Assembly: GCA_963699165.1 (NCBI GenBank)
Contig: OY969413.1
Span: forward strand, 276,562-340,561
Origin: Candidatus Kaiserbacteria bacterium
GTDB lineage: Bacteria > Patescibacteriota > Minisyncoccia > Phycocordibacterales > Phycocordibacteraceae
Direction: 5' to 3'
Length of the DNA stretch: 64,000 nt
Part shown: one piece after another, positions 12,618 to 62,764 of the stretch
Position numbering within the stretch: the first letter of the stretch is position 1
Layout of the letters: every line of letters starts with the position of its first letter
Made by a program: the position numbers and the translations under genes
Notes under the pieces: model-generated
The model's input: the letters and a program-made list of their open reading frames with translations, nothing else
Database searches by the model: none
What the model was told of the DNA's origin: nothing

Positions 12618-12942
12618 AAAGAACGTGTTTCAGTTTCGAATCCTAGCGTGTTGCGGCGATTATGCAAACCGTTCGCGTATAAAACAACGACCCGCGGCTT
12701 CCTGCGAAGCTCGCGGGTCAGGGTCCGGATTCCAGCTTTAGTTCTTGGCGACATGAGTATTTGGCTGGACGTAGCCGCTCGTTGGGGTGTACTGCTGGTC
12801 GGCTATAGAGAAAGCAACTGCAATTATAAGCAGCGAGAGAACGGCTGTGGCAATGTATTGGCGCATTACTGGATGACTCCTGGGGTGACAAAGAGTGGTC
12901 TGAGTGAAGTATTCAGCATAAATCTGATTTGTCAATTTTGCC

Positions 12943-13874
12943 TGTACGTTAGTATCGGGTTGTTGACACTTTTCGCGTCGACGAGTTCATTGAAAGCGCA
13001 AAAGGCGCGGTACGATTTTGGTGTTCAGACCATTTAATCGTTAGCGCCTCTTGCATGCACAAGAATACCAAATTGTTGCCGTACCAACGGCGTGAGATGT
13101 TCCGCAGATGGGGTATGGGAGCTCAAGCGACCCATTTGGCCCGAGAATACAAAGTCTCCCGAGAAACCGTATACGAGACACTTAAAGATGCCCGACTGAA
13201 CGTCTTCGAGAATCGTTCCTCGATGAATCACCGATATCGCACCATCCTGTACGGGTTCCAAAAGCTTGCTCGCACCGAAAAGCGCGTGGGAGAGAAGCTC
13301 GCCCGCAAAGCCCATCGATTGAACCGATACGAGAAATCGATACCGGGTGAAATGCTGCATCTCGATACCAAGCGCCTGCCGCTCCTGCGAGGAGAAGCCG
13401 CCGCGCAACCGAGAGAATACCTATTTGTCGCCATTGACGACTACTCTCGTACCGCCTTTGCCGATATCTTCCCCGACAAGACCGCATACTCGGCCGCCAT
13501 GTTCCTCGCCGAGAGCAAGCGAGTATTGCCGTTCCCCGTGACCGGCATCTATTCCGACAACGGGAGCGAGTACCGGGGACGACCGGATCATCCGGTGGCG
13601 GCACTCTGCAGGGAAACGGGCATGAGCCAAGCGTTCACGAAAGTGAAGCATCCCTGGACCAATGGAAAAGCGGAGCGATTCATCAAAACCCTCATGACCG
13701 AATGGCACGGGAAGACACGTTCCAATCACATCTCTCGAGCCCATCGCCGACGCTATTTGTATGCGTTTGTGGACTGGTACAACCAGACCCGCATTCACCA
13801 ATCGCTCGGAACAACTCCATTCGGAAGACTCGAGGCGTACCTAGAAAGTGTCAACAACGCGTTGACTTAGTACA
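12943..13874. mobile_element. IS481-family insertion sequence, copy 1 (about 932 bp). It has ~27-bp inverted repeats (TGTAC...GTTGTTGACAC) and a 7-bp target duplication TTTTGCC. Copy 2 at 36436..37367 differs by two SNPs.
   Basis: The two copies are near-identical (A/G at about 13089 is synonymous; one further SNP). Both start with TGTAC, and each has its own flanking direct repeats, a different one per copy. Confidence 0.85.
13055..13870 (+). CDS. IS481-family DDE transposase (rve integrase core), 271 aa.
   Basis: N-terminal HTH (ATHLAREYKVSRETVYE) and a DDE core with LHLDTKRLPLL, DNGSEYRG and HPWTNGKAERFIKTL, the HPxTNGxxER motif of IS481/IS3-type integrases. Confidence 0.9.
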   Translation: MHKNTKLLPYQRREMFRRWGMGAQATHLAREYKVSRETVYETLKDARLNVFENRSSMNHRYRTILYGFQKLARTEKRVGEKLARKAHRLNRYEKSIPGEMLHLDTKRLPLLRGEAAAQPREYLFVAIDDYSRTAFADIFPDKTAYSAAMFLAESKRVLPFPVTGIYSDNGSEYRGRPDHPVAALCRETGMSQAFTKVKHPWTNGKAERFIKTLMTEWHGKTRSNHISRAHRRRYLYAFVDWYNQTRIHQSLGTTPFGRLEAYLESVNNALT

Positions 13875-14753: not shown

Positions 14754-15797
14754 TCAATATTTTGTACGCGTCCAGTACTTTTGGCAGTCCCCGACGGTTA
14801 ATGTACACACAATATACCGCAAGGGGGACACCATGCCGAGCGACTGGTGCGGGCGTTTGGTGTTGTACCAGATCAGCCAGTCGACAAGCTTCAGATTGAA
14901 GGAATGAATATCGTCCCGCAGCAGGCCCCGATTCAGCATGATGAAGTCCTCGGAGACGGTGCGATTGAATCGTTCGACGTGGGCATTCATCTTGGGAGTG
15001 CGGGGGCGGGTGTGAAAGTGCGTGAGCCCGAGTTCGGCACAGGCATCCTCGAAGTGTTTGGCGAACTCGCTCCCGTTGTCGGTCTGCAACTCGTCGATAT
15101 CGAAGGGGCAAACCTCGATGACTCGGCGAAGGAAGTCGTCCGCGCTTCTCGACGAGTGGTTCGTATACGCGCCCGCAAAGGCGAACTTCCGCTCCACATC
15201 CACTGCCGTGAGGACGTACCGCTTCACGCCGTCGATGAAGCGGACGACGGTATCGAGCTCCATGCCGCGCTTGCCGGTGCGGCGAAGCTTGGTACGGCGT
15301 TTCTGCGGTGTTTCCGTGTGATTGCCCGTACGTGCGTGGAACGAGAGCCGGCTCTGCTGCGGGAGCAGACCGCGGTTCTTCAAATCCAGAATGACCCGCC
15401 CAACGTATGACTCCGACACGGAGTGCCCTTCTTCGCGCAGGAGAACGGCAAGCTTTGCTTTCCCAAGCCGGGGATGCGCCTGTCGTTCGCGGATGATGAA
15501 ATCCTCGACCTCGGGCAGAACAGTCCTCCTTCGACGCGCCTTCGGCGCAGTGCTCTTCGGGTCAAGTGCATCAATGCGGCCCTCGTGGGCTTTGAGTTCC
15601 TCCTTCCAGCGATACAAGGTGCGCTCCGAGGTGCCAAAGGCGTCGTATGCGGCCTCCGTCCCGTGCATGTCCCAGAATCCCAATATCTTCACCCGTCTGT
15701 CGACTTCCTTTGGTTTCCGCATATGCCGCAATCGTATCGTCCTTTCCCACATGCTCAACCAGCCCTTCGTACCCCTGAAATTGCTTCTGATGTGCAT
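14754..15797 (-). CDS. DDE transposase/integrase (rve core; IS481-like). Its last three codons read through the IS end into the flank.
   Basis: DNGSEFAKHF and HTRPRTPKMNAHVERFNRTVSEDF motifs, with an N-terminal HTH. The start is chosen inside the IS (MHIRSNF). The C-terminus differs from copy 2 only beyond the IS boundary. Confidence 0.8.
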   Translation of the reverse strand: MHIRSNFRGTKGWLSMWERTIRLRHMRKPKEVDRRVKILGFWDMHGTEAAYDAFGTSERTLYRWKEELKAHEGRIDALDPKSTAPKARRRRTVLPEVEDFIIRERQAHPRLGKAKLAVLLREEGHSVSESYVGRVILDLKNRGLLPQQSRLSFHARTGNHTETPQKRRTKLRRTGKRGMELDTVVRFIDGVKRYVLTAVDVERKFAFAGAYTNHSSRSADDFLRRVIEVCPFDIDELQTDNGSEFAKHFEDACAELGLTHFHTRPRTPKMNAHVERFNRTVSEDFIMLNRGLLRDDIHSFNLKLVDWLIWYNTKRPHQSLGMVSPLRYIVCTLTVGDCQKYWTRTKY

Positions 15798-15842
15798 ATA
15801 TCCTCGGTTATGAGGACTGCCAAATGTATCTGAACTTATGCA
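14763..15842. mobile_element. IS481-like (rve-type) insertion sequence, copy 1 (1080 bp). It has ~30-bp imperfect inverted repeats (TGTACGCG...; conserved core TTTGGCAGTCC) and a 5-bp target duplication TATTT. Copy 2 at 45559..46638 differs by one SNP.
   Basis: A 1080-bp near-identical repeat with TGTAC termini and a flanking direct repeat. The encoded protein has the integrase core. Confidence 0.8.
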
Positions 15843-15862
15843 TATTTTGCGTGCAGGCAGAG

Positions 15863-16531
15863 TCAGAGCCACCCTATTGGCTTCTCGGCATGCTCGATAA
15901 GATATGTATTCGTTTTACTAAAGGGCTTGCTTCCAAAAAAACCGTTTGAGGCGGAAAACGGCGACGGATGCGCGGATTCGAGAACCAGATGTTTGCTGCG
16001 GTCGATGTGCGCGCCTTTTGCTTTTGCATAGTTGCCCCACAGTATGAAAACCAAATGTTCGCGTTCTGCAGAAAGCGCGGCAATGACTGCATCGGTGAAT
16101 TGTTCCCAGCCGCGCGATTGGTGCGAGCCGGCGGCGTGGGCGCGTACGGTGAGAGTCGCGTTTAGAAGCAAAACGCCCTGCTCTGCCCATCGTGAGAGGT
16201 CGCCGCTCGTATGCTCGAGCGGCGCGCTCAAGTCATCCTCGATTTCTTTAAAAATATTTTTGAGCGACGGCGGGAGCGTCTGATTTTCTTCGACCGCGAA
16301 GGCAAGACCGTTTGCCTGCCCGTCGCCATGATACGGGTCTTGGCCGAGAATGACGACTTTTACTTTTTCAAACGGGCAAAGGTCGAATGCGCGAAAAATG
16401 TTTTTCGGCGCAGGGTACACTGCGCCGGTTTTGTACTCGTTTTTTACGAACGCGGCGAGTTCGGAAAAATACTGTTTTGCAAATTCGCCCGCGAGCTGCT
16501 GTTGCCACGAGGGTTCGATTTTCACTTCCAT
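15863..16531 (-). CDS. ung: Uracil-DNA glycosylase, family 1.
   Basis: Motifs VILGQDPYHGDGQANGLAF and LLLNATLTV...HQSRGWEQFTD, and the C-terminal HPSPFSASNGFFG. The 438-aa track ORF is an artefactual upstream extension; the true start is MEVKIEPSW at 16531. Confidence 0.9.
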   Translation of the reverse strand: MEVKIEPSWQQQLAGEFAKQYFSELAAFVKNEYKTGAVYPAPKNIFRAFDLCPFEKVKVVILGQDPYHGDGQANGLAFAVEENQTLPPSLKNIFKEIEDDLSAPLEHTSGDLSRWAEQGVLLLNATLTVRAHAAGSHQSRGWEQFTDAVIAALSAEREHLVFILWGNYAKAKGAHIDRSKHLVLESAHPSPFSASNGFFGSKPFSKTNTYLIEHAEKPIGWL

Positions 16532-36384: not shown

Positions 36385-36435
36385 AGGAATCTACTTAGAT
36401 TGTAGCATTTCAGGATTCGTCTGTCAAGCGCTCAC

Positions 36436-37367
36436 TGTACGTTAGTATCGGGTTGTTGACACTTTTCGCGTCGACGAGTTCATTGAAAGCGCAAAAGGCG
36501 CGGTACGATTTTGGTGTTCAGACCATTTAATCGTTAGCGCCTCTTGCATGCACAAGAATACCAAATTGTTGCCGTACCAACGGCGTGAGATGTTCCGCAG
36601 GTGGGGTATGGGAGCTCAAGCGACCCATTTGGCCCGAGAATACAAAGTCTCCCGAGAAACCGTATACGAGACACTTAAAGATGCCCGACTGAACGTCTTC
36701 GAGAATCGTTCCTCGATGAATCACCGATATCGCACCATCCTGTACGGGTTCCAAAAGCTTGCTCGCACCGAAAAGCGCGTGGGAGAGAAGCTCGCCCGCA
36801 AAGCCCATCGATTGAACCGATACGAGAAATCGATACCGGGTGAAATGCTGCATCTCGATACCAAGCGCCTGCCGCTCCTGCGAGGAGAAGCCGCCGCGCA
36901 ACCGAGAGAATACCTATTTGTCGCCATTGACGACTACTCTCGTACCGCCTTTGCCGATATCTTCCCCGACAAGACCGCATACTCGGCCGCCATGTTCCTC
37001 GCCGAGAGCAAGCGAGTATTGCCGTTCCCCGTGACCGGCATCTATTCCGACAACGGGAGCGAGTACCGGGGACGACCGGATCATCCGGTGGCGGCACTCT
37101 GCAGGGAAACGGGCATGAGCCAAGCGTTCACGAAAGTGAAGCATCCCTGGACCAATGGAAAAGCGGAGCGATTCATCAAAACCCTCATGACCGAATGGCA
37201 CGGGAAGACACGTTCCAATCACATCTCTCGAGCCCATCGCCGACGCTATTTGTATGCGTTTGTGGACTGGTACAACCAGACCCGCATTCACCAATCGCTC
37301 GGAACAACTCCATTCGGAAGACTCGAGGCGTACCTAGAAAGTGTCAACAACGCGTTGACTTAGTACA
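36436..37367. mobile_element. IS481-family insertion sequence, copy 2 (about 932 bp). It is flanked by an 8-bp target duplication GCGCTCAC and inserted exactly at the atpC stop codon.
   Basis: Near-identical to copy 1 (two SNPs). The flanking GCGCTCAC on both sides includes the atpC TGA on the complementary strand. Confidence 0.85.
36548..37363 (+). CDS. IS481-family DDE transposase (identical protein to copy 1).
   Basis: The 271-aa translation is identical to the 13055..13870 product. Confidence 0.9.
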   Translation: MHKNTKLLPYQRREMFRRWGMGAQATHLAREYKVSRETVYETLKDARLNVFENRSSMNHRYRTILYGFQKLARTEKRVGEKLARKAHRLNRYEKSIPGEMLHLDTKRLPLLRGEAAAQPREYLFVAIDDYSRTAFADIFPDKTAYSAAMFLAESKRVLPFPVTGIYSDNGSEYRGRPDHPVAALCRETGMSQAFTKVKHPWTNGKAERFIKTLMTEWHGKTRSNHISRAHRRRYLYAFVDWYNQTRIHQSLGTTPFGRLEAYLESVNNALT

Positions 37368-45549: not shown

Positions 45550-46593
45550 TCAACTTGCTGTACGCGTCCAGTACTTTTGGCAGTCCCCGACGGTTAATGT
45601 ACACACAATATACCGCAAGGGGGACACCATGCCGAGCGACTGGTGCGGGCGTTTGGTGTTGTACCAGATCAGCCAGTCGACAAGCTTCAGATTGAAGGAA
45701 TGAATATCGTCCCGCAGCAGGCCCCGATTCAGCATGATGAAGTCCTCGGAGACGGTGCGATTGAATCGTTCGACGTGGGCATTCATCTTGGGAGTGCGGG
45801 GGCGGGTGTGAAAGTGCGTGAGCCCGAGTTCGGCACAGGCATCCTCGAAGTGTTTGGCGAACTCGCTCCCGTTGTCGGTCTGCAACTCGTCGATATCGAA
45901 GGGGCAAACCTCGATGACTCGGCGAAGGAAGTCGTCCGCGCTTCTCGACGAGTGGTTCGTATACGCGCCCGCAAAGGCGAACTTCCGCTCCACATCCACT
46001 GCCGTGAGGACGTACCGCTTCACGCCGTCGATGAAGCGGACGACGGTATCGAGCTCCATGCCGCGCTTGCCGGTGCGGCGAAGCTTGGTACGGCGTTTCT
46101 GCGGTGTTTCCGTGTGATTGCCCGTACGTGCGTGGAACGAGAGCCGGCTCTGCTGCGGGAGCAGACCGCGGTTCTTCAAATCCAGAATGACCCGCCCAAC
46201 GTATGACTCCGACACGGAGTGCCCTTCTTCGCGCAGGAGAACGGCAAGCTTTGCTTTCCCAAGCCGGGGATGCGCCTGTCGTTCGCGGATGATGAAATCC
46301 TCGACCTCGGGCAGAACAGTCCTCCTTCGACGCGCCTTCGGCGCAGTGCTCTTCGGGTCAAGTGCATCAATGCGGCCCTCGTGGGCTTTGAGTTCCTCCT
46401 TCCAGCGATACAAGGTGCGCTCCGAGGTGCCAAAGGCGTCGTATGCGGCCTCCGTCCCGTGCATGTCCCAGAATCCCAATATCTTCACCCGTCTGTCGAC
46501 TTCCTTTGGTTTCCGCATATGCCGCAATCGTATCGTCCTTTCCCACATGCTCAACCAGCCCTTCGTACCCCTGAAATTGCTTCTGATGCGCAT
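45550..46593 (-). CDS. DDE transposase/integrase (rve core; IS481-like), 347 aa.
   Basis: Same protein as the 14754..15797 product except for H2R and the last residues, which read into the flank. Confidence 0.8.
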   Translation of the reverse strand: MRIRSNFRGTKGWLSMWERTIRLRHMRKPKEVDRRVKILGFWDMHGTEAAYDAFGTSERTLYRWKEELKAHEGRIDALDPKSTAPKARRRRTVLPEVEDFIIRERQAHPRLGKAKLAVLLREEGHSVSESYVGRVILDLKNRGLLPQQSRLSFHARTGNHTETPQKRRTKLRRTGKRGMELDTVVRFIDGVKRYVLTAVDVERKFAFAGAYTNHSSRSADDFLRRVIEVCPFDIDELQTDNGSEFAKHFEDACAELGLTHFHTRPRTPKMNAHVERFNRTVSEDFIMLNRGLLRDDIHSFNLKLVDWLIWYNTKRPHQSLGMVSPLRYIVCTLTVGDCQKYWTRTAS

Positions 46594-46638
46594 ATATCCT
46601 CGGTTATGAGGACTGCCAAATGTATCTGAACTTATGCA
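45559..46638. mobile_element. IS481-like (rve-type) insertion sequence, copy 2 (1080 bp), with a 5-bp target duplication CTTGC.
   Basis: Near-identical to 14763..15842 (one SNP, T to C near the transposase start, which gives His to Arg). Confidence 0.8.
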
Positions 46639-47438: not shown

Positions 47439-47837
47439 ATTTTCTATTTCGCTCGAAAGTTCTTCCTGGATTTTTCTGCGAACACCCGTCTTTATGGAAA
47501 AGACACATGGCTCTCAAACGAATTGTATTTTCGTGTGACGTACCAGCATTTTAGCAATGATTTCTGATTTGTGGGATTGCAATAGGAATTGCGGCATTCC
47601 CCCAAGGGGACTGCGATTTCCTATGCCTCGATTATTCGGCATGAAAATCGGGAGCCCTTGCAGGGTTGCAATTTGTCACCACATCGGAATGTGGACAAAT
47701 TGGGAACCTACTAAAATATACGAATCAGCAGATTCGCCTACCTGGGTCGCCGATTACGGCTCGTTAATTTTGTGGGGCCGCAGATTACTGCGGCATCCTA
47801 CAAAATTATAGTTGCGGAGTACCGCTCCTTAATTTTG

Positions 47838-56215: not shown

Positions 56216-57565
56216 TCACGGCAACTGCGGTGCAGGTAGATTGAGCGATGCGCAATAGAGATTATTTATCTCACGTTGCGTCGTTTTGTATACCAGCCCG
56301 GTCGGCGTATGGTCGGTTGGAAGTCCGAACGGCACCCACGGCTTGAGAACGTCGAAGTTATATTTCAACTGGAAATCTTTGACTGCTTTTTGCGTTTGCG
56401 GCCCGAATACGCCCGTAACGGGAAGATTGCCTCCCAGGTTTGAATTAAGAAATGTTTGCAGCTTCATCACCTCGTCGGAATCGTTATTTCTATTGCTGCC
56501 CAAAAACGTTTTGAGAAGAGGCCCGCAGCCCGGAACATTCACCGCTTCGGTCGAAGTGCCGAGCACTTGGCCGGTAATAATCGGTATGCTTATCGCGCCG
56601 TTTGACACAACAACCTGTGCGGGAGGAGCAGCCGGAGGCGCCGGCGGAGTACCTATTGAGCCGCCGCCTCGGGTATCGCCCGAACCCGTGTCTGTCGTGC
56701 TTGCCGATTGCGTTGTCGAAGCAGCGCCTCCCGAATCGGACGGCGCGGGCGGCGGAGCAATCAATTGATTCAGCACTATGAGCGTTTGATTCGGATTGGC
56801 CGGCGTAAGCTGGATGTATCCGTCCGAATTTAGATTGCGGCTCGCATCGTTTGAAGAATCCGAATCGAACAATTCCGGACTATACGCTGAAAAGTCGGCT
56901 GCGGAGCGAGCAAGCCCCGTCGCTTCGTCGTCATACTTGGGCGTTGCAAATCCGGTTGTGGTGCCAATTACTTCCTGTCCGTAATAGTAGCCGCCCGAGT
57001 CCGCAAAAAGACCGCTCTGTGTGACGCATTGGGCATCGTCGCCTGCGCTTGCATCAAAAATTTTATTTGAAAGCGATAGCGGCGTCGTAAACAAATACGG
57101 ACTGAATTCGCCCGATATCGGCCCAAGCGAAGTATCGGGATCCGGCGCCAGACCGGGAATGGAAAACGTAATGCCTGCCGGAACAGAGCTTGTCGCTACA
57201 GTCCCATCTGCGTTCAATATGATATTGCAAACGGTTATGGAGCCGTACGCCGGAGGAACGTATGCGCCGCCGCCTCCGCCGCCCCAATCGTCATGTCCGC
57301 CACCGCCGTCATGATTGCCATCGTGATGGTCCGAGCCATGCCACGAATCGCTGTCTGAATCCGAATCACCGTCGTGCTGACCGCTATCTTCATCAGATTG
57401 AATGTCGCCGCCATCGCCGTGTCGCCCGCCGCTGTAATTGCCTTGACCGGCGCTGTCCTGCGCAAACACTATATGCGTCGGTATTACAAACAGAAGGAGC
57501 GCGAACGCCTGCACGACAATGGCGCCTGTAATCGTCGAACGAAGAAAACCTTTTGAATTAGTCAT
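56216..57565 (-). CDS. Secreted protein with a His/Asp/Gly-rich low-complexity region and a C-terminal peptidoglycan-binding (PG_binding_1-like) domain.
   Basis: Signal peptide (start taken at MTNSKGFLRSTITGAIVVQAFALLLFVIPTHIVFA). An HDGDSDSDSDSWHGSDHHDGNHDGGGGHDDWGGGGGG tract. C-terminal DEVMKLQTFLNSNLGGNLPVTGVFGPQTQKAVKDFQLKYNF. Confidence 0.6.
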   Translation of the reverse strand: MTNSKGFLRSTITGAIVVQAFALLLFVIPTHIVFAQDSAGQGNYSGGRHGDGGDIQSDEDSGQHDGDSDSDSDSWHGSDHHDGNHDGGGGHDDWGGGGGGAYVPPAYGSITVCNIILNADGTVATSSVPAGITFSIPGLAPDPDTSLGPISGEFSPYLFTTPLSLSNKIFDASAGDDAQCVTQSGLFADSGGYYYGQEVIGTTTGFATPKYDDEATGLARSAADFSAYSPELFDSDSSNDASRNLNSDGYIQLTPANPNQTLIVLNQLIAPPPAPSDSGGAASTTQSASTTDTGSGDTRGGGSIGTPPAPPAAPPAQVVVSNGAISIPIITGQVLGTSTEAVNVPGCGPLLKTFLGSNRNNDSDEVMKLQTFLNSNLGGNLPVTGVFGPQTQKAVKDFQLKYNFDVLKPWVPFGLPTDHTPTGLVYKTTQREINNLYCASLNLPAPQLP

Positions 57566-57785
57566 GGAATAAAAGGTAGGTAATAAGGTTAAGCCCTTAT
57601 CCCTGCAGCCGTATTTCATGAGAAATGCTTACATGCGATGCTTTAAAACATACGAATAGGTAGATTCGCCTACTGGGTTATTCAGCAGGATCACCTACTT
57701 GGTTCGCTCGCAAATTTCCGCGACTCCTAAAGAACTGCGTTTTGTAAGCCACTCGCTTCGCTCGTGGACAAATTCGTTAAAACCT

Positions 57786-57811
57786 AAAAATCCGGTGCAT
57801 ACCGGATTTTT
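57786..57811. terminator. Intrinsic terminator hairpin AAAAATCCGGT/gcat/ACCGGATTTTT (bidirectional form) just 3' of tRNA-Ala(CGC).
   Basis: Perfect 11-bp stem including A/T runs on both sides. It sits 10 nt from the tRNA 3' end on the minus strand. Confidence 0.7.
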
Positions 57812-57821
57812 TAGCGTTTTG

Positions 57822-57894
57822 TGGACCATAGCGGAGTCGAACCGCTGACCTCGTCAATGCGAATGACGCGCTCTACCAGCTGAGCTAATGGCCC
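57822..57894 (-). tRNA. tRNA-Ala (anticodon CGC), 73 nt.
   Basis: GGGCCAT/TA/GCTC-AGCTGGTA-GAGC/G/CGTCA-TTCGCAT-TGACG/AGGTC/AGCGG-TTCGACT-CCGCT/ATGGTCC/A, with G3:U70. Confidence 0.9.
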
Positions 57895-57926
57895 TTCATG
57901 ACAACGGCACGCGCTAGTATCCTATC

Positions 57927-58553
57927 TTATTTCTTTGAATGCTTCCAGCGTCTGTCCTTCTCTTTCCGGTTGACGAACCAGGAATCGGCTTCGTCGAACC
58001 ACCATGCATCGGGATGCATTTTGAGAAGTATTTTTAGGACTTTCTTCCCGGCATCGGTTTTAATCCGCTTCGCCGCGATTTTCGCCCACACATTGGCCTT
58101 CGTATTTCCTTTCACCTCTTCGGCCCGAAGCGACGCGACCCATTCAAGCTGGTCCGCGTCCTTCACGAGGCGCGCTTCAAGCGTTTTCCGCTCCTGCTCT
58201 TCGAGATACAACGCCTCGAAATCTTTTCCGAACGGTACAGCATTGGCGATATCAGCCAATGCATTCCGTTCCCCAAGTCGGCCGTAGCGTTGATGCGCGT
58301 AATTGAGATCCGAGGTTCGACCTTCGGCAATATCATGTGTAAGCGCCATGAGCACCGTTTTATTTTTATCCGCCTCCGGAGTCAGGTACGCAAGCGCATA
58401 CGCTATATACGCCGTGCGAAAGAGATGTTCCGCCACGGACTGGTGCCCGCTTCCGAGGAGCCAGAAACCCGACCGCGGAGTATTCTGATGAGCACCCATT
58501 TCATAAACGAAACGGCCGATAGATTCAATTTCATGAGACGCCGACTTTTTCAT
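57927..58553 (-). CDS. HD-domain hydrolase, YfbR-like 5'-deoxynucleotidase family.
   Basis: SVAEHLFRTAYIAYAL...MALTHDIAEGRTSDL (the H...HD...D pattern of YfbR-type HD phosphohydrolases). 208 aa. Confidence 0.7.
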   Translation of the reverse strand: MKKSASHEIESIGRFVYEMGAHQNTPRSGFWLLGSGHQSVAEHLFRTAYIAYALAYLTPEADKNKTVLMALTHDIAEGRTSDLNYAHQRYGRLGERNALADIANAVPFGKDFEALYLEEQERKTLEARLVKDADQLEWVASLRAEEVKGNTKANVWAKIAAKRIKTDAGKKVLKILLKMHPDAWWFDEADSWFVNRKEKDRRWKHSKK

Positions 58554-58635
58554 GGAAATGATTGTATCAGATCTCGCGCATCGCTCAATCCGCAGAAAGC
58601 CGAACTTCGGCCCTCGACAGGGAGATGAAACGTCT

Positions 58636-58982
58636 TCCGGCCTTCGATTCCGGACAAACGCTTCGCGTTTTCACCCCTCACTTCGTTCGGGCCGCCGGGA
58701 ATCGGTCACGGATAATTCTCTCGCCGACGCTCGAGAATTTCCGTGACCACGCCTCGCGGTTCGGCTTGCTAGCCGAACATCGCTCCGGCATTCGATTCCG
58801 GACAAACGCTTCGCGTTTTCACCCCTCACTACGTTCGGGCCGCCGGGAATCGGTCACGGATAATTCTCTCGCCGACGCTCGAGAATTTCCGTGACCACGC
58901 CTCGCGGTTCGGCTTGCTAGCCGAACATCGCTCCGGCATTCGATTCCGGACAAACGCTTCGCGTTTTCACCCCTCACTACGT
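58636..58982. repeat. Tandem repeat with a 148-bp period, about 2.3 units, abutting the 3' end of tRNA-Pro(GGG). Each full unit begins with a 19-20-nt copy of the tRNA-Pro 3' end (TTCGGGCCGCCGGGAATCG) and contains internal hairpins.
   Basis: Units at 58686-58833 and 58834-58981 plus a partial unit at ~58636-58685. The unit contains the inverted repeat GGTCACGGATAATTCTC...GAGAATTTCCGTGACC and the hairpin GTTCGGCTtgctAGCCGAAC. A few SNPs distinguish the units. Confidence 0.8.
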
Positions 58983-59053
58983 TCGGGCCGCCGGGAATCG
59001 AACCCGGTCTACATCCACCCCATGGACGCGTACTACCGGCATACTCCGGCCCG
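58983..59053 (-). tRNA. tRNA-Pro (anticodon GGG), 71 nt.
   Basis: CGGGCCG/GA/GTAT-GCCGGTA-GTAC/G/CGTCC-ATGGGGT-GGATG/TAGA/CCGGG-TTCGATT-CCCGG/CGGCCCG/A. It has the C1:G72 pair and A73 characteristic of bacterial tRNA-Pro. Confidence 0.85.
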
Positions 59054-59070
59054 CTCCGAGATGTTCCCTG

Positions 59071-59141
59071 TCGGGCCGCCGAGAATTGAACTCGGTCCTT
59101 ACGAACCCGAATCGCATGTACTACCGGCATACTCCGGCCCG
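59071..59141 (-). tRNA. tRNA-Pro (anticodon CGG), 71 nt.
   Basis: Same acceptor and D arms as the GGG isoacceptor. Anticodon arm TGCGA-TTCGGGT-TCGTA and T arm CCGAG-TTCAATT-CTCGG. C1:G72 and A73 are present. Confidence 0.85.
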
Positions 59142-59189
59142 ACATGGAACACCTCTATTTGGCGCGCATGCTTCTAAAAAATCGCGCGG

Positions 59190-59263
59190 TGGGCGGTACA
59201 GGAATCGAACCTGTGACCTTACGCGTGTGAAGCGTACGCTCTAACCGACTGAGCTAACCGCCC
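59190..59263 (-). tRNA. tRNA-Val (anticodon CAC), 74 nt.
   Basis: GGGCGGT/TA/GCTC-AGTCGGTTA-GAGC/G/TACGC-TTCACAC-GCGTA/AGGTC/ACAGG-TTCGATT-CCTGT/ACCGCCC/A. Confidence 0.9.
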
Positions 59264-59282
59264 ATACATTTAACAGGGTGCA

Positions 59283-59313
59283 CGTACGCTCTAACCAACT
59301 GAGCTAACCGCCC
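59283..59313 (-). pseudogene. Truncated duplicate of the tRNA-Val 5' half (positions 1-31, one SNP in the D-loop), 20 nt upstream of the intact gene.
   Basis: GGGCGGTTAGCTCAGTTGGTTAGAGCGTACG matches the tRNA-Val 5' half and then diverges. Confidence 0.7.
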
Positions 59314-59357
59314 GACTACAAACGGCGCGAACACGTTCCACCATACCAAATTTTGAA

Positions 59358-60293
59358 TCAGATTCCTAGACCGCTAAGCGCATGCTCGACTTCGGAAATC
59401 GGAAGTGAAAAACCGATATTTTCCGAGCCCTGCACCATCGCGACGTTTACGCCGATCGCTTCGCCTGAAAGATTTACGAGCGGGCCGCCGGAATTCCCCG
59501 GATTAATTGCCGCATCGGTTTGGATTACGCCGTTCAAGGTCTCGCTCCCGCCTTGGTCATTGGAAGCCGTAATGCTTCTATTCAAGCCGGAAATGACGCC
59601 GACCGATACCGAGTTATTGTACTGGCCGAGCGCATTCCCCACGGCAAAAACGGATTGTGCAAGACGCAACGAAGACGAGTCGCCAAGCGACACGGTCGGA
59701 TAGCCGCTTCCGGTAATTTTTACAACGGCCAAATCCTCCGTGCTTGAGCGCCACACAACCGTGCCTGTTTTCTTTGCCCCGCTTGCGAGCAGTACGGTGT
59801 AGGTCGCGTTTGCGTCAGGCACGACGTGCTTATTGGTCACAATATATCCGTTGCTGCGCACGATAAACCCCGTGCCTGCGGAAACTTGCTGGCTCGTGGT
59901 GCCGACTTGCTGATATACGGGTACTTGTATGCCGAATCCTTGAAACATCGGGTCATTGCCGAACGGATTTTCATACGTCACCTGAAGCTGCGGCACGACC
60001 TGGCTTTCGACGATGGAAACGACTGCCGGCGTGACTTTGGAGACGGCGTCTTCAAGCGAGGGCGTTTCCGATTTCTGAACGACCTGATCCCGGCGCGCAA
60101 GTTCCGCCGCATTCACAGCCGTGCTCGAGGCCGTTTGAATGACCGCGTTCGAAAGCTCGCTAATCGATGACTGCAACAATGCGACCGAGTTTGAAAGACG
60201 CTGCACTTGCTGATTCTCGTACATAAGGCCGCCGGCAACGGCAAGAGCCGCAATGAGCGCGGCGATTGAGAAAATGGTTGCTGAATTTTTCAT
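59358..60293 (-). CDS. Trypsin-like serine protease, S1C (HtrA/DegP-like) family without a PDZ domain. N-terminal membrane anchor.
   Basis: Catalytic triad context TNKHVV (His), DLAVVKI (Asp) and GNSGGPLVN (Ser). N-terminal TM (IFSIAALIAALAVAGGL). The start is taken at MKNSATIF. Confidence 0.85.
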   Translation of the reverse strand: MKNSATIFSIAALIAALAVAGGLMYENQQVQRLSNSVALLQSSISELSNAVIQTASSTAVNAAELARRDQVVQKSETPSLEDAVSKVTPAVVSIVESQVVPQLQVTYENPFGNDPMFQGFGIQVPVYQQVGTTSQQVSAGTGFIVRSNGYIVTNKHVVPDANATYTVLLASGAKKTGTVVWRSSTEDLAVVKITGSGYPTVSLGDSSSLRLAQSVFAVGNALGQYNNSVSVGVISGLNRSITASNDQGGSETLNGVIQTDAAINPGNSGGPLVNLSGEAIGVNVAMVQGSENIGFSLPISEVEHALSGLGI

Positions 60294-60378
60294 ACGGTTA
60301 TTATACCGAATTTGAAGTGAAAAATGTTGCACAAAAGCGAAAGGGCCCCGCATCCGCGGAGCCCCGTACTCGCTCTTG

Positions 60379-60792
60379 CTAGTTGAGCCACGGCGGAGGG
60401 CTCCGCCTTTTGCATTCCCCTAAATCTTCCTTGATTTTTGCTAGCCAAACTCCGTAAGCGAAGCGCCACACCTTTTCCCTGTCTGTCATCCAGCGCGCGA
60501 GTTCTTCGGCAGACGGCATTACGCCGGAGATTGGTGTACCCGTGAGCTCGTTGTACATCTGAACGTGCGTTGCACGCACGCCGAAGTCGGGCATATAATC
60601 TTCCCGTTTCGGACACGTGCCCGCAAAATTTAGATAGTCGCTTTCCGACCCGCCGTTAGTAATCCACCCTATCAGATCGCAATCCCACGCACTCACTTCT
60701 TGCGGGAAACTGCCTTCCCGCAACGACCTGTATTCTCCGGACTCATCTTTAGGATGTTCCCAGCCCTCGGCGACCCTCCTTGTTTTTAACAC
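60379..60792 (-). CDS. Hypothetical protein (137 aa).
   Basis: ORF only. Trp-rich with no known motif. Confidence 0.4.
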   Translation of the reverse strand: MLKTRRVAEGWEHPKDESGEYRSLREGSFPQEVSAWDCDLIGWITNGGSESDYLNFAGTCPKREDYMPDFGVRATHVQMYNELTGTPISGVMPSAEELARWMTDREKVWRFAYGVWLAKIKEDLGECKRRSPPPWLN

Positions 60793-61622: not shown

Positions 61623-61897
61623 GGCTAGAGAGATAACTTTAACATCCAGGACTTAAATATGAACTCTGGGCGCGCTGAGGAGTTGGTAGTGCCAACCCTT
61701 CTCTTTTATCTGAGAGATAAAGTCGGAGTGGCCAATTTTCTCGTCGCCTACTGGGTTCGCTCGGAAATTTCCGCGACTCCTAAAGGACTGCGTTTTGTAA
61801 GGAGATTGACGCTCAACTAGACCTGTGTTAGTATGCGAAAGGGTGCGAAGAAATGTGGCTAACCAGTTCATATTTCTGTCTCGAAAGGAGACATCAG

Positions 61898-62289: not shown

Positions 62290-62690
62290 TTTAAAATTTG
62301 GTCAATGTATTGTCTGCTGGCTCTGCAGGGAGACGCTGCGTCTTGCGGCATCCACCAAACCAAAAATGACTGGTGCTGACCATTCTTTGTCTTTGTGGTC
62401 AGGAATAATTTGCTCGCCTCATTTAGCAAAATGACCTACTGGGTTCGCTCGCAAATTTTCACGACCCTGCCTCGCAGTCTCGCCTGCTGGCTCGACATAG
62501 CTCCGGCTTCCACAAAACCAGAAAAATCCGGTGCAGACCATGCAGAGTGTTCTGTGGTCACAAGTTGAGCATATTTCGCCAAATATGCTCACTAGCGACC
62601 CCGCCTCGCGGTTTGCTCTGCTGAGCAAACATCGCTGCGGCATCCACCAAACCAAAAATGACTGGTGCAGACCAGTCATTTTTGCGTTTG
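62290..62690. repeat. About three degenerate tandem units (~150 bp each) upstream of the tRNA-Ala(TGC) 3' end. The last unit contains the tRNA's intrinsic terminator hairpin (AAAAATGACTGG-tgcaga-CCAGTCATTTTT, 62655-62686); the earlier units carry decayed copies of it.
   Basis: Unit alignment: GCATCCACCAAACCAAAAATGACTGGTGC(T/A)GACCA... recurs at ~62336, ~62498 (more diverged) and ~62638. The preceding ~60 bp of each unit also align (CTCGC.G...CTGCTG...CGGC). Confidence 0.6.
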
Positions 62691-62691
62691 G

Positions 62692-62764
62692 TGGACCCGA
62701 GCGGACTCGAACCGCTTACCTCCTCATTGCAAATGAGGCGTTCTACCGGGTGAACTACGGGCCC
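62692..62764 (-). tRNA. tRNA-Ala (anticodon TGC), 73 nt.
   Basis: GGGCCCG/TA/GTTC-ACCCGGTA-GAAC/G/CCTCA-TTTGCAA-TGAGG/AGGTA/AGCGG-TTCGAGT-CCGCT/CGGGTCC/A, with G3:U70. Confidence 0.9.

Follow-up and report, generated by a model that had tools for sequence, protein, structure and literature searches.

Tandem arrays behind two tRNA genes

The window analysed here, a 64,000-nucleotide (nt) stretch of a Candidatus Kaiserbacteria bacterium genome (labelled Minisyncoccia; contig OY969413.1, of 993 kb, positions 276,562 to 340,561), carries a presumed transfer RNA (tRNA) operon in which tRNA-Pro(GGG) is followed by a tandem array of a structured non-coding element, and these repeats very probably belong to a large family that has not been catalogued before. 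All genes relevant to the array lie on the minus strand, as do the parts of the array itself: tRNA-Val(CAC), the first gene of the presumed operon (59188-59263; 73.7 bits with the Rfam tRNA model), tRNA-Pro(CGG) (59070-59141) and tRNA-Pro(GGG) (58983-59053), each called by ARAGORN and by Rfam, the last of them being followed, in the direction of the tRNAs, by unit 1, unit 2, a partial unit 3 and unique DNA. Tandem Repeats Finder reported a period of 148 nt at 58636-59000 in 2.5 copies, with 99% matches, no indels and a score of 716, and a second repeat search within the window delimited full copies at 58636-58783 and 58784-58931 with 99% identity, which confirmed the 148-bp tandem repeats described by the initial annotation. 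The same annotation let each repeat restart with about 19 nt of the tRNA; the tRNA 3' end is indeed repeated, while the true copy, CGATTCCCGGCGGCCCGA, measures 18 nt from T-loop position C56 to the discriminator, the 19-mer having taken in one trailer base. CGATTCCCGGCGGCCCGA occurs three times in the window, at 58983-59000 (the last 18 nt of the tRNA itself, termed y1, the source of the copies in the units), 58835-58852 and 58687-58704, and each full 148-nt unit terminates with it.

Unit 1 (58835-58982), delimited by the repeat searches and matched by our covariance model R1 at 58840-58951 (108.1 bits, E 1.5e-29), spans 148 nt and consists of a trailer, a hairpin (H1), a strand x, a core and a tRNA-end copy (y2). 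H1 (58952-58966; AAACGC-GAA-GCGTTT) was read from the fold, and x (58941-58949; CCGGAATCG) complements the T-loop and the 3' side of the T-stem of tRNA-Pro, followed by the junction bases AAT (58938-58940). The core, interpreted with the alignment described below, comprises P2 (58899-58937; also based on pair counts), with a GCC/GGC base, a GGA/GA internal loop, an AU bulge, a covarying distal stem and an AGCA loop, and P3 (58852-58896), with a GGUC...GACC base, a conserved G.U pair, a bulged A and a GACG-type apical loop; y2 (58835-58852), an exact copy of the tRNA-Pro(GGG) 3' end from C56 to the discriminator, forms the 3' strand of the closing helix P1. Unit 2 (58687-58834; covariance-model match at 58692-58803, 108.1 bits) is 100% identical to unit 1, with x at 58793-58801, P2 at 58751-58789, P3 at 58704-58748 and the y copy at 58687-58704. 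The partial unit 3 (58636-58686, 51 nt) retains the trailer, H1, x and the first 6 core nt (GCCGGA) with 2 substitutions and diverges after them, and a last unit shortened as in the Pro array recurs in four other loci (L159, L019, L119, L062). The predicted fold of a unit reached -73.3 kcal/mol compared with -53.4 ± 3.9 kcal/mol for shuffled sequences (z = -5.1), and the unit has four hairpins instead of the two initially annotated.

A second assembly of the same organism (L001) is otherwise 100% identical over 12 kb and holds one unit fewer, which may reflect true copy-number variation or short-read collapse. The module of tRNA end, trailer, H1 and x that flanks the units forms a 69-nt direct repeat whose copies are 97% identical; given these modules and the identity of units 1 and 2, unequal exchange or slippage explains the step from one unit to two. 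Past the array lie a weak terminator-like hairpin, GCCGAAGTTCGGC, followed by TTTCT (58594-58611, minus strand), which was recognized by eye and fails the criteria of terminator prediction, and an HD-domain gene that starts at 58553. A sigma-70-like promoter for this gene (TTGAGC, a 16-nt spacer and TACAAT, with a TG extension; 58561-58588, minus strand) lies in the degenerate end of the Pro array. We dropped the pattern GAGCGATG.CGCGAG at about 58570-58585 as a decayed remnant of a core, since it overlaps this promoter-like site.

When the unit was searched against the window with BLAST, two weak, collinear matches appeared behind tRNA-Ala(TGC) (62689-62764, minus strand, ARAGORN), the head of a second array, and two tandem diverged units are found there. 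The Ala and Pro units share GCCGSAGCKATGT and YGCGAGGCRKGGTC, and the hairpin between these segments differs in its stem yet still pairs. Ala unit 1 (62544-62655, minus strand; 96.7 bits, E 3e-26 with the covariance model) is of a short type, its x, TTGGTGGA, complementing the tRNA-Ala 3' end TCCACCAA; Ala unit 2 (62392-62515, minus strand; 80.5 bits, E 1.6e-21) carries a 27-nt insertion in the apex of P3, and a degenerate third unit (62300-62391, minus strand) keeps H1, x and GCCGCA and is divergent thereafter, with a self-BLAST match of 93% identity between 62344-62388 and 62636-62680. A core pattern, GCCGNAGCNATG-N(15-25)-NGCGAGGCNNGGTC, matched the window four times and 100 shuffled versions of it not once, and the covariance model, run over the whole window with no filters, returned exactly four strong matches (80-108 bits), the next best scoring 13 bits.

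Several short non-coding repeats with 84-93% identity (57691-57748, 61744-61801, 62421-62465, 47712-47747 and 57644-57678) lie near tRNA-Ala(CGC), tRNA-Ala(GGC) and the Ala(TGC) array. In sequence they are similar to the 5' half of P3 together with an insertion, and to a motif ACCCAGTAGGCGAATCT...ATTCGTAT, and they have the appearance of decayed fragments or of further modules belonging to this mosaic. Upstream of the Pro array, a 31-nt copy (30 of 31 positions) of the 5' half of tRNA-Val(CAC) at 59283-59313 (minus strand) lies 19 nt ahead of that gene (59188-59263) and could be a duplication scar or part of an operon leader.

A covarying three-way junction on the tRNA-sense strand

On the minus, tRNA-sense strand the order of the element is H1, x, a three-way-junction core with P2, P3 and about 35 near-invariant bases, and y2, which pairs with x to form P1. 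The fold was assessed on an alignment of 67 members (A1), to which P1 was added by hand after RNAalifold. RNAalifold itself returned the three-way junction, with compensatory changes in 21 of 31 pairs. Once P1 was included, 94.1% of alignment cells were paired compared with 71.5% in shuffles, both sides had changed in 26 of 35 pairs, and the covariation score was 0.58, against 0.17 in shuffled alignments (none of 500 reached 0.58) and at most 0.125 when the partners were slid by 1-3 columns. In the aligned members P2 has an invariant GCC/GGC base, a G-S-A/G-A internal loop, one covarying pair seen as G:C, U:A, C:G and A:U, an invariant A-U bulge, and a distal stem that varies and in most cases carries an AGCA loop, and P3 combines the GGUC/GACC base, the bulged A and the GACG-type apex with several recurrent sequence types of about 45 or 60 nt. 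Cells with G.U are far more numerous than those with A.C (128 versus 20), and one G.U pair of P3 is conserved in 62 of 67 sequences, from which we conclude that the fold belongs to the tRNA-sense strand.

The H1 loop reads CUGC in 12 of 15 strict H1 hairpins, compared with 3 of the 84 hairpins of terminator-like form found elsewhere in these loci, an enrichment which indicates that H1 belongs to the element instead of being an arbitrary terminator. Some long-type elements (L068, L026) have x split into anti-acceptor and anti-T parts around H1, P1 of L090 is a single continuous helix, and short-type elements have no acceptor-like part. Two further features were considered and rejected: a kissing contact between the complementary loops of H1 (CUGC) and P2 (AGCA), whose co-occurrence is at chance level (odds ratio 0.97, P = 1), and mimicry of a tRNA minihelix as a general feature, which is not universal across elements.

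Each element is matched to its own tRNA

In the loci fetched for comparison, most cores are found downstream of a tRNA gene on the same strand, at a distance of 44-96 nt that peaks sharply at 46 nt, and these tRNAs include nearly every isotype; one element (L026) lies 3' of a transfer-messenger RNA (tmRNA) gene. Three Kaiserbacteria-like genomes (L011, L019, L027) hold intact orthologous elements after a ribosomal-protein-like gene, with compensatory changes, and the maintenance of intact elements at one orthologous site points to selection on structure. The common layout is y1 (the tRNA 3' end), H1, x (the complement of y1), junction, P2, P3 and y2 (the copy of y1), and it occurs in two types. 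In the short type, y consists of the last few tRNA bases plus a CACAAA-like trailer, and y1, H1 and x together form one nearly perfect hairpin of 20-25 bp that extends over 5-8 nt of the acceptor strand. The Pro units are of the long type, whose y covers the tRNA from C56 to its 3' end; about 20 loci have an exact copy of 17-24 nt, and x tracks the T-loop variant of its own tRNA (GGAAUCG, GGACUCG, GGAAUUG or GGACUUG).

This match is specific: the 16 nt before the core paired with the end of the element's own tRNA at -17.6 kcal/mol compared with -11.1 kcal/mol for other tRNAs (P = 4e-21), and with its own y2 at -11.0 kcal/mol compared with -7.7 kcal/mol (P = 1e-7). Among the positions at which y1 and y2 differ, x can pair with y2 alone at 23 and with y1 alone at 28, counts for which the register is unreliable in longer junctions.

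Distribution across Patescibacteria

The core pattern was run on a collection holding one genome per species, in which locus counts are lower bounds, and it matched at least 119 genome loci, about 110 of the matches listed being true members. Among the matches listed, 90 of 119 carry labels of Patescibacteria lineages (38 Saccharibacteria, 23 Paceibacterota, Paceibacteria or Parcubacteria, 12 'Patescibacteria group', 7 Kaiserbacteria, and others), 14 are metagenome-assembled genomes labelled 'bacterium', 6 have other labels with a true element, and 9 are chance matches in coding DNA of GC-rich genomes. The covariance model found 117 copies in 100 of the fetched loci. Arrays of 2-4 units also occur in L116, L115, L038, L162 and L136, and a marine contig assembled from Sanger reads (L198) holds an array of 4 units, so that artefact does not explain arrays of this kind in general. 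A tandem-pair pattern run on metagenomes was too loose, only about 14 of its 83 matches being true members.

Searches for a catalogued counterpart gave nothing. The initial annotation had pointed to a phage or plasmid as a possible carrier of the unit; the core pattern had no match in a collection of 2.9 million viral contigs, and blastn of the unit against 50,697 phage and 72,556 plasmid records found none either. Membership in a known non-coding RNA family, which the initial annotation had named as grounds against its reading, finds no support in Rfam 15: at E values up to 10 only tRNAs were significant in 57000-60500, the best score on the unit being 14.9 bits against a threshold of 145, and at gathering thresholds 15 related loci gave only tRNA, tmRNA and small-subunit ribosomal RNA. 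Literature searches, including literal core sequences, returned nothing on the element.

The six elements in other-labelled metagenome-assembled genomes (L021, L045, L050, L062, L064, L074; Bdellovibrionales, Gammaproteobacteria or Elusimicrobia), one of them on a 678-kb contig, represent either mislabelled or mis-binned Patescibacteria contigs or a presence outside the phylum. The array at 3065-3450 of L116 has three units in which two core types alternate, units 1 and 3 being identical and unit 2 different, and it forms a higher-order repeat. Upstream of the array of L198, at about 1215-1100 (minus strand), a different centre, CCTTGCGAGCTACTTTTCAAGCTTGCGCAGAAAAGTGGCCACAAGG..., lies between two segments related to the upstream tRNA, an anti-T-loop strand, GGGGGAATTGAAAA, and a copy of its T-loop, TTCAATTCCT, and may be a second core type with the same x/y design.

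Discussion

The analyses show a folded element of fixed strand that is conserved across Patescibacteria, lies behind tRNA or tmRNA genes, in some loci within tRNA operons, and is matched in x to its own tRNA. Most likely, each 148-nt unit is a modular non-coding element that acts as a folded single minus strand, as RNA, and we put the probability that it is a structured RNA co-transcribed with tRNA operons at roughly 0.5. This comes close to what the initial annotation had offered as its alternative, an amplified small structured RNA gene, and the evidence now describes a conserved family with covariation. In several loci, elements are wedged into tRNA operons with too little room for a promoter, which supports transcription with the operon: L038 reads tRNA-Cys, two elements and tRNA-Leu, with a gap of 20 nt to the next tRNA; L117 reads tRNA-Val, element and tRNA-Pro, with a gap of 21 nt; and L159 reads tRNA-Arg, an element and a partial element that ends 9 nt ahead of tRNA-Met. 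Terminator prediction in the window placed no terminator between tRNA-Pro and the units. The element would be transcribed within the tRNA operon and freed by the nucleases that trim the flanking tRNAs. It might then act in cis on the tRNA precursor, as suggested by the stronger pairing of x with y1 than with the decoy y2. When the tRNA is folded or cut off, y2 would capture x and the junction would close, keeping x out of the tRNA and leaving a compact, capped trailer RNA, whose conserved core could be a protein-binding or catalytic platform. The array would grow by unequal recombination or slippage between the repeated modules of tRNA end, H1 and x.

Several observations weigh against this reading. 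In 67 of 70 elements the real tRNA end is a stronger pairing partner for x than y2 is, which may make P1 secondary. Many H1 hairpins, or separate hairpins before x in the long type, resemble intrinsic terminators with a U-run; transcription would stop there before reaching the core, and no promoter is evident at that place. The exact identity of 17-24 nt between y2 and the tRNA end extends over bases that are unpaired in P1 and over a few trailer bases, a pattern better accounted for by a recent duplication or integration than by selection acting on an RNA helix over the long term. The cores of one genome are closer to cores of other species than to each other, a hint of movement or exchange. 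The cis function, moreover, is one that we infer from pairing strength.

The elements could also be RNA switches across the phylum, each matched to its own tRNA, with x toggling between y1, or the free 3' half of the tRNA, and y2, and with the junction sensing a ligand or protein. We regard this as unlikely; if true, the switches would couple the maturation or surveillance of each tRNA to a cellular signal, as a reverse T-box placed behind the tRNA gene.

The main rival to the RNA reading is a mobile cassette. A tiny non-autonomous integrative unit of about 110-150 nt, composed of H1, x, core and y, could recombine at the 3' end of tRNA genes; entry at y, in Campbell fashion or by transformation and homology, would give y-H1-x-core-y, and repeated events or unequal exchange would build arrays, the x:y duplex of the folded strand perhaps mimicking the tRNA-gene end by analogy with CTXphi attP(+) and integron attC. 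We think this doubtful, even though much of the geometry would fit. Opening a circle at y would give the order y-H1-x-core-y as a linear permutation, the exact repeats of 17-24 nt start precisely at C56 in about 20 loci and have a ragged right edge a few nt past the tRNA end, y2 is exact even in its unpaired parts, and arrays finish in a fractional unit. The CUGC loop of H1 is specific to the element, similar Val-Pro tRNA clusters have or do not have an element at a given spacer depending on the genome, and cores are more alike across species than within a genome. The two downstream copies in L038 match each other and differ from the acceptor strand of the resident tRNA-Cys at 3 positions, like a displaced foreign end. 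On the other hand, no recombinase domain was found among the genes called within about 6 kb of the array, and the only mobile-element genes identified in the window, where no protein-by-protein scan was made, are rve-type DDE transposases of two insertion sequence families. To these come the searches of viral contigs and of phage and plasmid records, all without a match; x and y would need re-tailoring to a new tRNA in each lineage; and the conserved G.U pair and the intact orthologous copies indicate selection on an RNA-like fold. We know of no way for a gene-less circle of about 130 nt to replicate, transfer or move. A comparison with an empty site by way of the downstream HD-domain gene reached homologues that are at most 72% identical and not syntenic. 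A hybrid, an RNA-encoding cassette that spreads by recombination at the tRNA end, is possible.

Three other explanations appear weaker. The core could be a self-cleaving or ligating ribozyme of a new class that cuts read-through transcripts at the P3/P1 boundary, where the tRNA-end copy starts exactly, and would thereby set the 3' ends of tRNA operons and free RNAs one unit long from arrays. The core has the look of one: it is a three-way junction of about 95 nt, its near-invariant bases (about 35) are concentrated in an internal loop, bulges and the junction, and P1 is free to vary as a substrate helix would be, and other small ribozymes likewise occur in multiple copies and in tandem; yet no ribozyme model of Rfam matched at E values up to 10, those of the hammerhead, twister, twister-sister, pistol, hatchet, HDV and hairpin classes included, no cleavage site is identifiable from the sequence, and many invariant bases sit in Watson-Crick stems, which fits protein recognition equally well, and we consider a ribozyme quite improbable. 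The initial annotation favoured scars of serial integration and excision. Its geometry, direct repeats of the tRNA 3' end beginning in the T-loop, stands, but the 130 nt between the repeats are a complete, covarying and conserved module shared by about 110 genomes and many other tRNAs, not a phage or island remnant; since units 1 and 2 are also 100% identical and the unit has no phage, plasmid or viral match, decayed attL/attR sites of ordinary phages or islands at tRNA-Pro are a very improbable source. Hardly credible, finally, is an assembly artefact: the second assembly is one unit short, but at least 1.5 units, joined in the same way, are present in both assemblies, another array, diverged in sequence, stands 3.5 kb away, and unrelated genomes as well as a contig from Sanger reads have arrays of 2-4 units.

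Comparison with known systems

When DNA integrates at a tRNA gene, the 3' end of the tRNA becomes directly repeated from the T-loop onwards. Such att sites, the tandem accretion of islands and cis-mobilizable elements (CIMEs) are reportedly treated by Williams in 2002 and in the work on ICESt1 and ICESt3. The arrays described here share with them the repeat starting in the T-loop, the intact tRNA restored upstream, the tandem order and the non-coding units bounded by att-like sequences; unlike them, the element is 110-150 nt long, gene-less and not linked to an integrase, has a conserved three-way junction and holds the complement x. The repetitive extragenic palindromes (REPs) of Proteobacteria and the BIME and REPIN mosaics are likewise short structured multi-copy modules after genes, with mosaic arrays and copy-number variation, and they are transcribed as 3' parts of operons, which is proposed for the present element. 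REPs are palindromes of 20-40 nt with a GTAG head, tied to the Y1 transposases called RAYT, whereas the present element is a 95-nt three-way junction tied to tRNA genes, with a closing helix adapted to the tRNA next to it; no RAYT gene was seen, none having been searched for.

The element also recalls attC and CTXphi attP(+): its fold is specific to one strand and has conserved bulges, two inverted segments with about 90 nt between them anneal to mimic the chromosomal target, and arrays form at that target. Integron attC sites carry R'' and R' boxes (RYYYAAC and GTTRRRY) at the base of the folded strand and are recombined by the IntI integrase. No R' or R'' box was noticed on reading the unit, in which no pattern search for them was made, and the flanks of P1 are derived from the tRNA; no link of the element to IntI or Xer was found, IntI not having been searched genome-wide. 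The conserved G.U pair and the location in tRNA operons make the present element look more RNA-like than attC or attP(+). T-boxes are found upstream of aminoacyl-tRNA synthetase or amino-acid genes, where they recognize the anticodon and the mature NCCA end. They, too, have an RNA strand that base-pairs to a particular tRNA at its 3' end and alternates between two pairings, an alternation that is only proposed here; here, unlike in a T-box, x matches the gene-encoded end with its trailer or the T-loop, the element stands 3' of the tRNA gene, and there is no part that reads an anticodon.

The 3'ETS-leuZ RNA is a short unstructured sponge of one species. It and the bacterial Y RNA YrlA are RNAs from, or mimicking, tRNA transcription units, released by tRNA processing and containing copies of tRNA helices, a release that here would be predicted. 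YrlA adjoins rsr (Ro60), mimics the T- and D-arms and has a GNCGAAN0-1G motif (PMC4201824). A bacterial Y RNA was rejected as an identity of the element, there being no Ro60 among the genes called around the array, no Rfam Y RNA match and no T-loop in the element. Arrays of TIGR RNAs are tandem and non-coding and occur in bacteria of the Candidate Phyla Radiation (CPR), where they encode 36-nt dual-spacer RNAs beside Nop-domain Tas genes (PMC12045711). We rejected these as well, as the period here is 143-148 nt, the arrays stand behind tRNA genes, and the genes called around the array include nothing Tas-like.

Patescibacteria, the ultra-small CPR bacteria, make up a large share of bacterial diversity, and few of their regulators and non-coding RNAs are known. 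The element is deeply conserved, multi-copy and structured, is attached to their tRNA genes and absent from Rfam, and has a closing helix that is rewritten for each tRNA. Such a helix implies that reduced genomes handle their tRNA precursors in a novel manner, or else that a new kind of gene-less, minimal mobile DNA targets tRNA genes, and the covariance model could be used to annotate the element in thousands of genomes.

Other repeats in the window

Two further pairs of repeats in the window are 99.9% identical (12942-13874 with 36435-37367, and 14763-15842 with 45559-46638). The open reading frames at 13055-13870 (plus strand) and 14754-15872 (minus strand) encode DDE transposases with helix-turn-helix and rve/rve_3 domains, and the repeats represent two insertion sequence families with two copies each in the window.

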